A stretch of 64,000 nucleotides of DNA from a virus (taxonomy: Duplodnaviria > Caudoviricetes). The first letter of the stretch is position 1, and every line of letters starts with the position of its first letter. Positions 20,792 to 36,429 of this stretch are shown here, one piece after another. The stretch lies in IMG/VR virus record IMGVR_UViG_3300044297_000138, positions 64,001-128,000 of that record; one strand, given 5' to 3'. The notes under the pieces are model-generated. The model was not told where the DNA came from. It searched no databases and saw only the letters and a program-made list of their open reading frames with translations. The position numbers and the translations under genes were made by a program.

Positions 20792-20868
20792 GCGCCTGTA
20801 GCTCAGTTGGTCAGAGCAGGGGACTCATAATCCCTTGGTCCTAGGTTCAAGTCCTAGTGGGCGCACCA
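20792..20868 (+). tRNA. tRNA(CAT), most likely Ile2 (lysidine type)
   Basis: Cloverleaf, loop CTCATAA, CCA end; arms resemble bacterial Ile2 tRNA. Confidence 0.85.
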
Positions 20869-23422: not shown

Positions 23423-23514
23423 GCCAGCGAGACTTGGTAGTCAGAGAGGTCTTATAAGCCTTTTAGCGCCAGATTAGCGTTCTTGAGTGAGTTCGATTCT
23501 CACCGCTGGTACCA
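23423..23514 (+). tRNA. Atypical tRNA with TAT anticodon (nominally Ile) and long variable arm
   Basis: Acceptor GCCAGCG/CGCTGGT-A-CCA, 4-nt D loop, loop CTTATAA, T arm GTGAG-TTCGATT-CTCAC. Confidence 0.8.
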
Positions 23515-23997: not shown

Positions 23998-24210
23998 TAT
24001 TAAATTGCATTGGGTTACCAATTCCAATAGGTGACTGTCAGGGATAGATTCAGCAGCCGTGCTGACCTTGACACAATCACATGAAGCCTGACGATGGTGT
24101 TGGAAGTAATTGGTTCGTAATGTGGACATAACCTTATCGGCGGACGAAGCCGTGAGAAGTCTCCTGGAGTGGAGAAACGGTTGTGACACCCCAATGTAAT
24201 TTAGTATGGT
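23994..24210 (+). ncRNA. Unknown ~215-nt multi-stem RNA
   Basis: 21-bp uninterrupted closing stem (2 GU) plus internal hairpins. Confidence 0.65.
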
Positions 24211-24213
24211 ATT

Positions 24214-24333
24214 ATTTGTTTTGCTGATGTAAGCTCAGAGGTACGATCAAACGTTATGTAACTATGTAAATAAACGGTAATTCTTGCAAGTAAGTCCGTT
24301 GAGCATAGCATATAGTGCGTCAGCAAAACAAAT
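24214..24333 (+). ncRNA. Unknown ~120-nt structured RNA
   Basis: 18-bp closing stem ATTTGTTTTGCTGATGTA / TGCGTCAGCAAAACAAAT. Confidence 0.55.
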
Positions 24334-24341
24334 GGTATTAT

Positions 24342-24766: not shown

Positions 24767-24842
24767 GGGCCAGTAGCTCATCTGGGAGAGCATCTGCTTT
24801 GCAAGCAGAGGGTAGCGGGTTCAAGTCCTGTCTGGTCCACCA
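24767..24842 (+). tRNA. tRNA-Ala(TGC)
   Basis: Loop TTTGCAA, G3.U70, CCA. Confidence 0.95.
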
Positions 24843-24847
24843 AAACG

Positions 24848-25110
24848 TGCCGTCTAGTCAACGGCTACTCCGACCCGGAGGACGAGAAGTGGTGTGATGG
24901 CCACGGGTGGTTCTGAGATTTGGAATATAAGTCTCACAGTAGAAATACTGCGGTCTAACCAAACCGGCGCTGGCAATGCGATAACGGCCCCTGTCGGGGA
25001 GCGGGTGGAAGGTGCGTGTGATGGTGGTGTGGTATGAGTGCCTAAAAGGCGTCCTCAGAGTCCATTAACTGCTTGATGCGCTATAATTACCGCCGAGGGG
25101 TGCCAGAGCA
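24848..25110 (+). ncRNA. Unknown ~260-nt GC-rich multi-domain RNA
   Basis: At least 8 stems incl. a GAAA tetraloop hairpin and long-range pairings; no ORF; between tRNA-Ala and tRNA-Met. Confidence 0.7.
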
Positions 25111-25113
25111 TTT

Positions 25114-25188
25114 GGTGATATAGCATAGAAGGATATGCACGGGTTTCATACGCCTGCAAGGTTGGATCGTTACCAACTATCACCACCA
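25114..25188 (+). tRNA. tRNA-Met(CAT), elongator type
   Basis: Loop TTCATAC, paired 1-72; atypical T loop ATCGTTA. Confidence 0.8.
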
Positions 25189-25194
25189 AATTTT

Positions 25195-25270
25195 CGGTCC
25201 TTGGTGAAACTGGAGATCATCTGAGTCTACGAAATTCAAGTTGGGGGCTCGAATCCCTCAGGACCGGCCA
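25195..25270 (+). tRNA. tRNA-Arg(ACG)
   Basis: Loop CTACGAA; T loop CTCGAAT. Confidence 0.88.
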
Positions 25271-25352: not shown

Positions 25353-25427
25353 ATCTCGCTGGTGTCAACGGCAGCATGACGGTCTCCAAAACCGTGGGAC
25401 GGGGTTCGAATCCCTGGCGGGATGCCA
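25353..25427 (+). tRNA. tRNA-Trp(CCA)
   Basis: Loop CTCCAAA, G73-CCA. Confidence 0.93.
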
Positions 25428-25448
25428 TTTTTTATAAAGGTGATTGAT

Positions 25449-25925
25449 ATGAAAAAATTCAATGTAGAAGAAGTCAAAACATTCCTTGCAACACAAGGAC
25501 CTGATACCCGTGTATACTTGGGTGCCGACTCCGAAAGAATTAGAGTTAACGGCGTATGGTATGCTGACTATGCATTGGCTGTTGTTGTTCATATTGATGG
25601 CCGCCACGGTTGTAAAATTTTCGGTTATGTTGACCGTGAATTGGATTACGACCATAAGAAAAGTAAACCTGCTATGCGTCTGATGACAGAAGTATATAAG
25701 GTTTCAGAATTGTTTCAAGAATTGCAACATTCACTAGAAGATTTCCATGTTGAAGTTCACTTGGACTTAAATAAGGATGAAGAATTCGGTTCTTCTTGTG
25801 TTGTGCAACAAGCGATTGGTTACATCAAAGGTACATGTAACATGACACCTATGGTTAAACCAGACGCACCTGCCGCTTCTTTCTGTGCAGACCGACTGAA
25901 ACGGATTTTAGCGGAACAAGAATGA
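25449..25925 (+). CDS. RNase H-like YkuK (DUF458) family protein
   Basis: VYLGADS, VVVHIDG..GCKIF, RLMTEV, EVHLDLN, AASFCAD. Confidence 0.75.
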   Translation: MKKFNVEEVKTFLATQGPDTRVYLGADSERIRVNGVWYADYALAVVVHIDGRHGCKIFGYVDRELDYDHKKSKPAMRLMTEVYKVSELFQELQHSLEDFHVEVHLDLNKDEEFGSSCVVQQAIGYIKGTCNMTPMVKPDAPAASFCADRLKRILAEQE

Positions 25926-31839: not shown

Positions 31840-32148
31840 ATGGATGTAAAAATATTTAAACTGGTAACCGGTGAAGAAATCATGGGTGAGGTCATCGGTG
31901 ATGGTGGAAAATTTACCGTTAAAAACCCAGTTTTGGTTGCTGTAATGCGTGGAAAAGATGGAGTACCTAATGTGGGATTCGCACCTTTCCCAACATATTC
32001 GGAAGAAGTTAAGAATAAAACAATTGACTTTAGATTAGAACATGTAGTATACTCCTATACTCCAGCTGAAGATTTCAAACAGAATTATGATTCTATTTTT
32101 GGTCTTGGCCTAGTTCTCCCTGGCCAAAAGAAGATTATTACAGGATAA
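31840..32148 (+). CDS. Conserved hypothetical (Sm-like) protein preceding gp43
   Basis: KIFKLVTGEEIMGE, VKNP, YDSIFGLGLVLP. Confidence 0.7.
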   Translation: MDVKIFKLVTGEEIMGEVIGDGGKFTVKNPVLVAVMRGKDGVPNVGFAPFPTYSEEVKNKTIDFRLEHVVYSYTPAEDFKQNYDSIFGLGLVLPGQKKIITG

Positions 32149-33449
32149 TGACAAAAAACTTTTATACAAATGTCCAATCTGTCGGCGGTAAAATTCTATA
32201 CCGTGGTGTACGTGGCGGTAAAAAAGTCAAAATAAAAATTGACTATGAACCGAAGTTGTACTTGCCGGCCACAAAAGTTGCGACACACAAATCACTTGAA
32301 GGCAAACCTTTAGTTGAAAAGAAGTTTGATTCTATTTTTGAAGCAAGAGATTACATCAAAAAATTTCAAGATGTTTCTGGTGCACCAAAAATCTATGGTC
32401 AAACTAGATACGAGTATGCATTTATTGCCGAACAACATACAGATATGGTTGAGTGGGACCAAGATAAGATTGATGTTGGCATCATTGATATTGAGGTTGG
32501 ATCAGAAAATGGATTCCCTGATCCATATCTAGCCAATGAACCAATCACAGCTATCGCCTGGAAAACACTTGGTGGTCACATGCATGTTTGGGGTTGTGGT
32601 GAATTTAATAATGAAACTCCTGATGCAGTTACCTATCACAAATGTAGAGATGAATGGTCTCTTTGTAAATCATTTATCACCGCATGGTCAACCAGAACAC
32701 CAGATGTATTGACCGGTTGGAACACCAAGTTCTTTGATGTGCCTTATCTTGTCAATCGTTTTCGCAAAATCCTTGGTGAAGATGAAGCCAAGAAAATGTC
32801 GCCTTGGAACTTTATCTCTGAACGCAAGACTGTTATTAATGGTCGTGCAATGACAGCATATGGTTTCCTTGGTGTTGAACAACTTGATTATATTGAACTA
32901 TACAAATGGTATGCACCGGGTGGTAAGTCACAAGAATCATATCGTTTGGATAATATTGCAAACGTAGAAATCGGTGAAAGTAAAATCTCATACGATGAAT
33001 ATGATAACCTGCATCAACTCTACCGATTAAACTTTCAAAAATTCATTGAGTATAACATCAAAGACGTTTTGCTGATTGAAAAGATGGAAGATAAACTAAA
33101 GTTGATTGAACTTGGCCTAACTCTGGCCTATGATACGAAATGCAACTATGAAGATATCTTTGCACAGACTCGTATGTGGGATTCAATGACATATTCCTAC
33201 CTGTACAATCAAGGCATCATTGTTCCACCAAGAGAAGTGCAAGACAAAGATTCTGCATTTGAAGGTGCTTATGTTAAAGAAGTTCAGGTTGGTAAACACG
33301 ATTGGGTTGCCTCGTTTGACTTGAATAGTCTCTACCCACATTTGATGATGCAATATTCCATTTCGCCTGAAAATCTGGTGGAAAGAAGTTATATTGATGA
33401 AAGAAAACGCAAAGTATTAGAGGAATTGAAGCTTAGAAATACTAAATAA
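32148..33449 (+). CDS. gp43: DNA polymerase family B, N-terminal half (exonuclease + motif A)
   Basis: DIEV, TGWNTKFFDVPYL, YNIKDV, SFDLNSLYP; stops shortly after motif A. Confidence 0.95.
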   Translation: MTKNFYTNVQSVGGKILYRGVRGGKKVKIKIDYEPKLYLPATKVATHKSLEGKPLVEKKFDSIFEARDYIKKFQDVSGAPKIYGQTRYEYAFIAEQHTDMVEWDQDKIDVGIIDIEVGSENGFPDPYLANEPITAIAWKTLGGHMHVWGCGEFNNETPDAVTYHKCRDEWSLCKSFITAWSTRTPDVLTGWNTKFFDVPYLVNRFRKILGEDEAKKMSPWNFISERKTVINGRAMTAYGFLGVEQLDYIELYKWYAPGGKSQESYRLDNIANVEIGESKISYDEYDNLHQLYRLNFQKFIEYNIKDVLLIEKMEDKLKLIELGLTLAYDTKCNYEDIFAQTRMWDSMTYSYLYNQGIIVPPREVQDKDSAFEGAYVKEVQVGKHDWVASFDLNSLYPHLMMQYSISPENLVERSYIDERKRKVLEELKLRNTK

Positions 33450-34746: not shown

Positions 34747-35057
34747 TGATTGACTACTATGAAGCACTGAAAGAAATGCACCAAGGTAATGTGGTCAAAT
34801 ATGTTGGTACTGTGAATGGCAATGTAATGAGCAACAATGGTGCCAGTTTCTGTATGTGTCGTGGTTGTATCTTTCTATTTGATAATGGAGTAATCAAATG
34901 GGACAAGTTAGGCTACATGGTTTACGATCCAGATTTTCGTTATGAACTAACCGGCGAAACTGTAAATCCGAGGGCGTGGAAACCAGAAAAGAAAACGGAC
35001 CGTAAAGAGATTAAATCCAAGTTAGGTTATAGTAGAATAGGATTGGATAATGTTTAG
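34740..35057 (+). CDS. Hypothetical protein
   Basis: AAGGAG RBS; overlaps start of polymerase C-half. Confidence 0.65.
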   Translation: MVMIDYYEALKEMHQGNVVKYVGTVNGNVMSNNGASFCMCRGCIFLFDNGVIKWDKLGYMVYDPDFRYELTGETVNPRAWKPEKKTDRKEIKSKLGYSRIGLDNV

Positions 35058-36429
35058 AGATGTAAAAGAAATGACAATTGAAGAACTTGAGAGAGAACTT
35101 CATGCACTTGAGTTGTTTCAGAATGAAATTGGTAAAGTTGGTGTAAACTCAATGTTATCTAAGAGTGTTGACACATCATTTTTGCAACCAATGCAATGCA
35201 CAATAACACCCAATGGTCAACTATTCAGGATTGACCGACAAGGTTTCTTACCTAAGATGATGGAAGAAATGTATGAGGATCGTAAGAAGTTTAAGAAGAT
35301 GATGTTGAAAGCACAACAGGAGTATGAGAATGAAAAAGATGAATCCAAAAAATATGATATTGAAAAACGAATCGCCAGATACAACAACCTACAGCTCGCC
35401 AAGAAAGTTTCTCTCAATTCTGCTTATGGTGCTCTTGGTTCTCAGTATTTCAGATTTTATGATTTGCGTATGGCTCTTGGTGTTACTACTGCTGGCCAAC
35501 TATCTATTCGGTGGATAGAAGCCAAGATAAATGATTACTTGAACAAACTATTGAAAACGAATGAAGATTATGTTATCGCCTCAGACACAGATTCAATTTA
35601 TCTCAAGCTTGGTCCACTTGTTGACAAAGTGTATGGTGCAGGACAAGATAAATCTGTCTCTACAAGAATTGACAAACAAAAGGTTATTGATTTCATGGAT
35701 CGTGTATGCGAAGATAAAATACAACCGTATATTGATAAAAGTTATCAAGAGCTTGCTAATTATGTTAATGCGTATGCACAGAAAATGCAAATGAAGCGAG
35801 AAGGCCTATCAGACAAAGGTGTATGGACTGCCAAGAAAAGATACATTCTAAATGTATATAATAACGAAGGTGTTCAGTATGCCGAACCTCATATGAAAGT
35901 GATGGGTCTAGAAATGGTGAAGTCATCTACACCATCGGCAATCCGTGAAAAGATGAAAGAAACAATTCAGTTGATGATGACTGGCACAGAAGAAGAGGTG
36001 CAACAGTTTATTGCCAAGTTTAGAGAAGAATTTAAATCATTGCCACCCGAAGAAATTTCTTTTCCAAGAGGTCTGAATGGGCTAAATACTTATTCCGATT
36101 CGGTGACTTTATATAAAAAAGGAACTCCAATTCATGTTCGTGGTGCAATCGTCTACAATCACCACCTCAAACAACTTGGTTTAGAAAAGAAATACCAAAA
36201 GATTCAAGAAGGTGAAAAGTTAAAGTTTACCTATTTGAAAATGCCAAATCATTTCAAAGAAGATGTAATTTCGTTTCCTGCCAGAATTCCCAAAGAATTT
36301 GGGCTTGACGAATATATTGATTATGACTTACAATTTGATAAGGCGTTTCTAGAACCCATCAGGATTATTTTGGATTGTATGAATTGGAAAGCCGAAAAAT
36401 CAAATTCATTAGAAGATTTTTTTAGTTGA
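35050..36429 (+). CDS. gp43: DNA polymerase family B, C-terminal half (fingers, motifs B and C, thumb)
   Basis: QLAKKVSLNSAYGALG, ASDTDSIY, AKKRY, clamp-binding tail SLEDFF. Confidence 0.95.
   Translation: MFRDVKEMTIEELERELHALELFQNEIGKVGVNSMLSKSVDTSFLQPMQCTITPNGQLFRIDRQGFLPKMMEEMYEDRKKFKKMMLKAQQEYENEKDESKKYDIEKRIARYNNLQLAKKVSLNSAYGALGSQYFRFYDLRMALGVTTAGQLSIRWIEAKINDYLNKLLKTNEDYVIASDTDSIYLKLGPLVDKVYGAGQDKSVSTRIDKQKVIDFMDRVCEDKIQPYIDKSYQELANYVNAYAQKMQMKREGLSDKGVWTAKKRYILNVYNNEGVQYAEPHMKVMGLEMVKSSTPSAIREKMKETIQLMMTGTEEEVQQFIAKFREEFKSLPPEEISFPRGLNGLNTYSDSVTLYKKGTPIHVRGAIVYNHHLKQLGLEKKYQKIQEGEKLKFTYLKMPNHFKEDVISFPARIPKEFGLDEYIDYDLQFDKAFLEPIRIILDCMNWKAEKSNSLEDFFS

Follow-up and report, generated by a model that had tools for sequence, protein, structure and literature searches.

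We report that the gap between two tRNA genes in the tRNA array of an uncultured phage is occupied by a real RNA gene, whose product belongs to a conserved, multiply pseudoknotted RNA family that is absent from Rfam 15. The carriers of this family are uncultured freshwater (lake) phages, both T4-like and jumbo, in which the RNA is embedded in tRNA operons and independent of them. As an explanation of the whole, we suggest, with moderate confidence, a stable, compact, trans-acting noncoding RNA with tRNA-linked maturation, encoded by a single-copy accessory gene.

Locus, carriers and known RNA families

The window (the whole stretch of DNA analyzed, 64,000 nt, taken from a 174.5-kb IMG/VR virus record at bases 64001-128000) carries 28 tRNA genes on the + strand between positions 20792 and 27169 (ARAGORN, Rfam). 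The RNA gene is delimited by two of them:

24767..24842, + strand: tRNA-Ala(UGC), CCA-encoded (ARAGORN, Rfam); its 3' end is the 5' boundary of the RNA
24843..25113, + strand: whole RNA gene, long form, 271 nt; the entire gap from tRNA-Ala to tRNA-Met
25114..25188, + strand: tRNA-Met(CAU) (ARAGORN, Rfam); adjoins the 3' end of the RNA

A reading of the sequence alone, made before any search (the sequence-only reading), had singled out a GC-rich stretch devoid of ORFs within the tRNA array, and this description is confirmed for the gap 24843-25113, which has a G+C content of 0.54-0.56 vs 0.34-0.40 in the coding flanks and 0.379 in the genome. The only ORFs to be found there are short ones that also span the tRNAs. 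No conserved ORF was detected in the RNA family: anchored frames remain free of stops in no more than 4 of 99 relatives. As a further coding check, the lengths of family members are scattered across all three residues modulo 3.

The genome in the window encodes T4-type replication proteins (sliding clamp, clamp loader, family B polymerase and UvsX), and its closest cultured relatives are cyanomyoviruses, with a polymerase identity of only 45-47%. We note separately that the family B DNA polymerase is encoded in two pieces, an N-terminal one (32148-33449, 433 aa, covering positions 6-438 of the 856-position profile) and a C-terminal one (35050-36429, 459 aa, PF00136), which lie about 1.6 kb apart with two ORFs without a known family in between. 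In the tRNA array itself, the tRNA-Ile(UAU) gene at 23423-23514 is, at 92 nt, unusually long for its species (ARAGORN), and an RNase H-like ORF is found at 25422-25925, between tRNA-Trp and tRNA-His (167 aa, PF04308/phrog_11311). Whether or not the RNA is present, this ORF is conserved (86-95% identity) across 331 IMG/VR stretches, and its product is a candidate array-associated nuclease.

The same RNase H-like ORF served as the query to collect 80 related IMG/VR loci. The RNA was detected by blastn in about half of these, where it always occupies an inter-tRNA gap, of 193-269 nt, between differing tRNA pairs. An alignment of 24 sequences (A1) yielded a consensus fold and a covariance model (R1), which matches the window copy at 24843-25114 with 181 bits (E about 1e-59). 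More members were gathered through two IMG/VR pattern scans, one for an invariant 17-mer of the 3' domain (24993-25009 in the window) and the other for a 5'-domain pattern meant to escape ascertainment through that 17-mer. R1 or nhmmer identified one copy per locus in about 157 IMG/VR loci, plus 31 further variants, and 100 distinct sequences (A3) formed the basis of the pairing and covariation counts. Among the carriers are T4-like genomes of about 160-177 kb as well as contigs of jumbo phages that measure 212-347 kb, and the public runs in which the stretch occurs are metagenomes of freshwater, aquatic and riverine origin. The median length of the family is 206 nt; the window copy reaches 271 nt because two length-variable places, a lineage-specific insert and the extension distal to helix P8, are expanded in it. 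The invariant 17-mer at 24993-25009 and AAUUACCGCC could serve as a pair of sites for PCR screening for carriers.

Searches against known RNA families returned nothing for this gene. At the gathering score, cmscan with all 4227 Rfam 15 models reported no family at 24843-25113 and only tRNAs in the flanking array. With the threshold relaxed to E<=10, it yielded no meaningful family for the RNA within 24780-25180, and it was also silent for a canonical 203-nt relative (L115:2320-2535) and a divergent one (L084:7000-7215). The Rfam classes without a match include GOLLD, ROOL, raiA, HEARO, OLE, RNase P, tmRNA, SRP, 6S, 5S, T-box, cobalamin, group I and II introns and the self-cleaving ribozymes, in agreement with the earlier remark that no RNase P, tmRNA, SRP or group I core could be seen in the sequence. 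ARAGORN detected no tmRNA, and the sole Rfam trace of one is a 9.5-bit match over the end of tRNA-Ala. A group I intron in a tRNA gene was also considered and rejected, both flanking tRNAs being complete and no Rfam intron model matching.

It is extremely improbable, in our view, that the RNA is a known type in highly diverged form (RNase P RNA, tmRNA, group I, T-box, 5S, cobalamin or a GOLLD/ROOL fragment). Look-alike strings can be picked out by eye, such as GGGUGGUA (T-box-like), GGGAAGCGGGUGGAA (cobalamin-like), GAAGUGA, CCGAA and an ...CCAGAGCAU end (5S-like), but none of the 4227 Rfam models matches any of three family members at E<=10, no tmRNA is predicted by ARAGORN, and the flanks are complete tRNAs, with nothing interrupted. 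The T-box, cobalamin and 5S look-alikes were rejected in their own right: cmscan is silent on them, and the strings take part here in pairings foreign to those classes.

Nucleotide searches gave a similar picture. Neither the window copy nor a canonical member has a blastn match among GenBank phages, and a megablast search with 12 kb of sequence returned tRNAs as the only matches. A scan of 185,579 cellular genomes for the invariant 17-mer produced at least 120 matches; among the 120 cellular matches listed, the motif stands alone, with no CM or nhmmer match, and these are chance matches. We found no published description of the RNA family. A catalogue of structured-RNA candidates that shares our source (IMG/VR) and our type of evidence, covariation in intergenic regions of viruses, comprises motifs of 29-151 nt with a mean of 67, and could contain at most fragments of this RNA (PMC10690425).

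Covariation, fold and tertiary contacts

The case for the fold rests on the relatives, because single-sequence folding supports neither side: the minimum free energy (MFE) fold of the window copy is no better than that of shuffled sequences (z = -0.9 on the + strand and -1.0 on the - strand). Across the 100 sequences of A3, 97.1% of the cells for the 53 proposed pairs are paired, and 36 of these pairs show compensatory change. The covariation score is 0.451, compared with 0.043-0.097 when partners are slid by 1-3 columns, and the observed value was reached by none of 500 shuffles. The sequence-only reading had raised the possibility of an undescribed structured RNA class, naming a cmscan search against Rfam and a covariance model built from homologues as ways of checking it; the lack of an Rfam family, together with this strong covariation, supports the proposal. 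The fold consists of eight helices, a P1/P3 kissing loop and a 3-bp pseudoknot (PK1), arranged in the window as follows:

24849-53 / 24861-65, + strand: P1 hairpin (span 24849..24865); 5/5 pairs covary
24868-72 / 24876-80, + strand: P2 hairpin with triloop ACC at 24873-75; 3/5 stem pairs covary
24881..24888, + strand: J2/3 junction GAYGAGAA; unpaired purines near-invariant in 100 sequences
24889-93 / 24900-04, + strand: P3 hairpin (span 24889..24904); 6/6 pairs changed on both sides
24905..24911, + strand: GGGUGGU strand; PK1 via 24906-08, tentative PK2 via 24909-11
24912..24950, + strand: lineage-specific insert, 39 nt; hairpins 24914-36 and 24937-50 (GAAA loop) in the MFE fold
24951-54 / 24963-66, + strand: P4 hairpin; 4/5 pairs covary; conserved loop with ACC at 24958-60
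24968-70 / 24978-80, + strand: P5 hairpin, 3 bp; loop UGGCAAU near-invariant
24987-92 / 25096-25101, + strand: P6, long-range helix; 6/6 pairs covary
24995-96 / 25094-95, + strand: P6b; CG to UA swap in extra members
25001-08 / 25087-93, + strand: P7; 5' strand (GCGG, bulged G, UGG) in the most conserved part of the RNA
25011-16 / 25077-82, + strand: P8; 5/6 pairs covary
25017-21, + strand: K-turn-like bulge (UGU + GA), opposite GA at 25075-76
25022..25074, + strand: variable distal extension past the K-turn-like motif; 53 nt here, 2-71 nt in the family
25075..25101, + strand: 3' strands of the K-turn-like GA, P8, a conserved AUAA, P7, P6b and P6
25102..25113, + strand: single-stranded 3' tail, conserved, YGCAGAGCAU-like

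Several of these helices had been noticed by eye. The stems GCCGT/ACGGC (P1), CTCCG/CGGAG (P2), GTGGT/GCCAC (P3), CCCCT/AGGGG (P6) and GCGT/ATGC (part of P8) are all borne out by compensatory changes. The pairing GGTT/AACC survives in a qualified form, as it matches a probable second pseudoknot, PK2, that we regard as tentative. The stems TGAGATTT/AAGTCTCA and CAGTA-GAAA-TACTG do form in the MFE fold, within the lineage-specific insert of 30-60 nt that follows the GGUGGU strand in only 14 of the 100 members. The proposed long-range helix TGGCA/TGCCA, on the other hand, must be abandoned: TGGCA is the near-invariant loop of P5, and its supposed partner reads TGCAG in most members.

In PK1, the P2 triloop (ACC, 24873-75) pairs with GGU at 24906-08, and all three pairs covary, the partner sets encountered being ACC/GGU, ACA/UGU, AUC/GAU and GUC/GAC. 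PK2 would join GGU at 24909-11 to ACC at 24958-60 in the P4 loop; its strands are invariant except in the lineage of L084, where GG and CC are swapped on both sides. The kissing loop brings together the P1 loop (GUCA, 24857-60) and the P3 loop (UGAU, 24895-98) with a covariation score of 0.526, against at most 0.194 in slid controls. Its pairs vary as GC 56/AU 26/GU 10, UA 78/CG 15 and CG 60/UG 20/GC 13, and in one sub-lineage the kiss extends to 5 bp (UAACG/CGUUA). The closing pair of P3, moreover, changes together with position 24957 of the P4 loop, and the pair that closes the P5 loop alternates between CG (74) and UA (26). Covariation thus shows a globular body held together by the P1/P3 kiss and the GGUGGU strand.

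In the 3' domain, the GCGG/CCGC pairing of P7 is replaced by GUGG/CCAC, GAGG/CCUC or GUUG/CAAC in other members, and the bulged G of this helix co-changes with an A of the conserved CUAUAAUUA run. A kink-turn signature, P8-NNN-GA...GA-P8', is present at the level of sequence in 68 of the 100 members, including the window copy. By the same comparative evidence, P6, P6b, P7 and P8 form one long compound helix that presents invariant unpaired nucleotides. A weak helix (P0) may pair 25108-09 with 24847-48 (90% of cells paired, with one pair covarying), and the 4-nt leader carries an invariant C.

Position in the tRNA array and release of the RNA

The RNA always lies on the strand of the neighboring tRNAs, and in 106 of 131 family members it starts 0-3 nt past an upstream same-strand tRNA. 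These two features make its release by tRNA processing probable. The downstream junction is looser, with a tRNA within 10 nt in 74 of 141 members and no tRNA within 60 nt in 62 of 141, and hence RNase P cannot always be the source of the 3' end. Where no tRNA precedes it, the RNA starts 1-2 nt past a stop codon, a situation seen with at least 8 unrelated ORF families. We posit that the RNA would be transcribed within the tRNA polycistron and excised by the enzymes that mature the flanking tRNAs, its 5' end being generated by 3'-end processing of the upstream CCA-encoded tRNA and its 3' end by RNase P cleavage ahead of the downstream tRNA. From this arrangement we infer maturation by tRNA punctuation.

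There is a hint that the RNA is transcribed. Contigs from the metatranscriptome libraries of one study, which are assembled contigs possibly including DNA and whose summed core depth mixes relatives and is no measure of expression, cover 24872-24955, 25054-25142 and 25048-25231 with at most 3 mismatches. The latter two extend into tRNA-Met and tRNA-Arg, which is what one would expect of a precursor, and short-form relatives are also represented among the contigs of the same RNA-library study.

The nearest parallels in setting are rnaC (species 1, 139 nt) and rnaD (species 2, 119 nt) of T4, two stable non-tRNA RNAs that lie inside the T4 tRNA cluster after tRNA-Arg, on the tRNA strand and 1-6 nt from their neighbors. 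The RNA described here shares this same-strand placement a few nucleotides from tRNAs. The T4 RNAs are freed by tRNA-processing enzymes, and they have gone unexplained for decades. They differ from our RNA in that they have no homology to it: with filters off, the best R1 score in the rnaC/rnaD region (NC_000866, 69000-75000) was 3.6 bits, which is noise. Furthermore, the 3' end of rnaC consists of a T arm and an acceptor resembling those of a tRNA, both of which our RNA lacks, and, compared with either T4 RNA, ours is one larger, pseudoknotted unit.

A second way to account for the 5' junction is that the RNA is a ribozyme and cleaves itself at its 5' edge, freeing the upstream tRNA or mRNA with a defined 3' end. 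Functionally, the RNA would then be a far larger counterpart to the HDV-like theta ribozymes of gut phages, pseudoknotted RNAs whose 5' edge likewise abuts directly on the 3' end of a phage tRNA, so that phages do place such elements immediately behind tRNAs (PMC10879173). The hard 5' boundary behind both tRNAs and unrelated ORF families, the comparatively loose 3' boundary, and a multiply pseudoknotted fold with many invariant unpaired bases, including the leader C, are all in keeping with this possibility, and the tight junction behind ORF stop codons fits 5' cleavage equally well. We nonetheless deem it unlikely. Theta ribozymes are minimal HDV folds, whereas this RNA is far larger and has another topology: the covariation-supported map contains no HDV-like nested double pseudoknot (P1/P1.1/P2/P3/P4), a fold in which the 5'-terminal strand pairs, as P1, with a segment past P3 and J4/2 holds a catalytic C. 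Here the 5' end pairs with the 3' tail by at most 2 bp, and each pseudoknot joins the loop of a local hairpin to a strand. Rfam self-cleavers give no match. Tight junctions are to be expected anyway in dense arrays, where tRNA-tRNA spacers measure 2-10 nt, and CCA-encoded tRNAs require no special 3' cutter. Finally, the RNA-library contigs bridge the 3' junction, and none of them indicates a cut at the 5' junction.

The arrays also contain other elements that deserve mention. Another conserved element that is not a tRNA, about 115-125 nt long, lies in the gap between tRNA-Glu and tRNA-Lys (23998-24341 in the window); it occurs in 59 Glu-Lys gaps of related loci, and in some jumbo phages (L087 and L163) it is located directly behind the RNA copy. 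At least 12 more families of inter-tRNA inserts of 110-400 nt are present in these arrays, examples being Tyr-Asp (about 203 nt), Cys-Glu (about 122), Gln-Ser (about 178) and Thr-Leu (about 210). In two otherwise similar arrays, ARAGORN predicts a tRNA-Pyl of the CUA type (L018) and a "Stop" suppressor tRNA (L078), which are possible suppressor tRNAs in relatives. In three loci (L074, L058 and L059), a conserved 28-nt spacer separates the RNA from tRNA-Asn and carries the extended -10-like TGTGATATATAAT, which suggests an internal promoter within the array.

Distribution, action in trans and implications

The RNA is found between more than 30 distinct flanking tRNA pairs, and an individual site can be filled or empty: the Arg(ACG)/Ile(GAU) site holds the RNA in 26 relatives and is an empty 5-nt spacer in the window. 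Whole-record searches of three genomes that are 95-100% complete (332, 343 and 176 kb) identified exactly one copy in each, two close relatives that are 98-100% complete have no copy, and the RNA is absent from 35 of the 80 related loci. Single copies and absence from complete relatives together define the RNA as a single-copy accessory gene. Not one of the 248 ORFs of the genome analyzed here is shared by the three genomes with the RNA and missing from both genomes without it, and in this comparison of five genomes a dedicated phage protein partner is unlikely.

This patchy distribution might instead reflect a selfish or neutral passenger, of little benefit to the phage and spread from one inter-tRNA site to another by recombination or endonuclease-driven gene conversion, a reading to which we assign a slim chance. 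It would readily explain the diversity of flanking tRNA pairs, the Arg/Ile site that is full in some relatives and empty here, and the absence from complete close relatives; at least 12 other conserved non-tRNA inserts populate the same arrays, and the T4 tRNA cluster itself contains a homing endonuclease, SegB. It does not sit well, however, with a 200-nt tertiary fold under purifying selection across T4-like and jumbo phages. These carrier genomes have only 38 of 248 ORFs in common, and the retention of the fold across phages with so few common genes argues that the RNA itself is functional. Moreover, no endonuclease gene travels with the RNA.

Ten loci are particularly informative in that the RNA is present without any tRNA in the locus and with unrelated neighbors, which points to action in trans rather than in cis. 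No conserved protein neighbor was found in these tRNA-less loci, and scans around their RNA copies revealed no promoter or terminator of their own, only promoters downstream. In two of the loci, a perfect sigma-70 promoter is located 3' of the RNA, which implies that the RNA ends a transcription unit and does not lead one. The location inside an operon and a fold of aptamer-like complexity might suggest that the RNA controls the neighboring tRNAs or genes in cis, as a riboswitch, attenuator or processing signal, but the placement of these promoters speaks against it. So does the diversity of downstream neighbors, which range from various tRNA species to an SH3 protein, an AAA ATPase and a tail-fiber-like protein, and no terminator/anti-terminator alternative is seen in the RNA. 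We therefore hold cis-regulation to be highly improbable.

A trans-acting globular RNA is hence, we infer, the most likely reading, and a ribozyme the less likely one. Under our proposal, the released RNA would work in trans while the phage infects its host. It could be an RNA-only device, or it could bind a host factor, which, given the genomic position of the gene, would probably be one of tRNA metabolism or translation. The GOLLD and ROOL RNAs offer a point of reference, as they are ornate, pseudoknotted RNAs of phages and prophages, often encoded near tRNA islands, that have no known protein partner and form homo-oligomeric nanocages (PMC12286853). The sequence-only reading had drawn this same comparison. 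It stands as regards the tRNA-island setting and the ornate pseudoknotted fold, and fails as regards sequence and structure, for which there is no match in Rfam; GOLLD and ROOL are also roughly two to four times the size of a typical member of our family. It is unlikely, in our estimation, that the RNA is a large new catalytic or RNA-only machine acting on tRNAs or the translation apparatus. Such a machine might be, for example, a new class of 5'-edge-cutting ribozyme or a device for the protein-free capture of host tRNA-directed factors, such as defense nucleases.

We note that this RNA, apparently independent of any phage protein, occurs in two groups of abundant lake phages that differ greatly from each other, and that its presence or absence among near-identical phage genomes supplies natural knock-outs. 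With a length of about 200 nt, at least three tertiary contacts and deep covariation, it is tractable for structure determination and for ribozyme and binding assays. Solving the role of the RNA could reveal what purposes phage tRNA arrays serve in addition to decoding.
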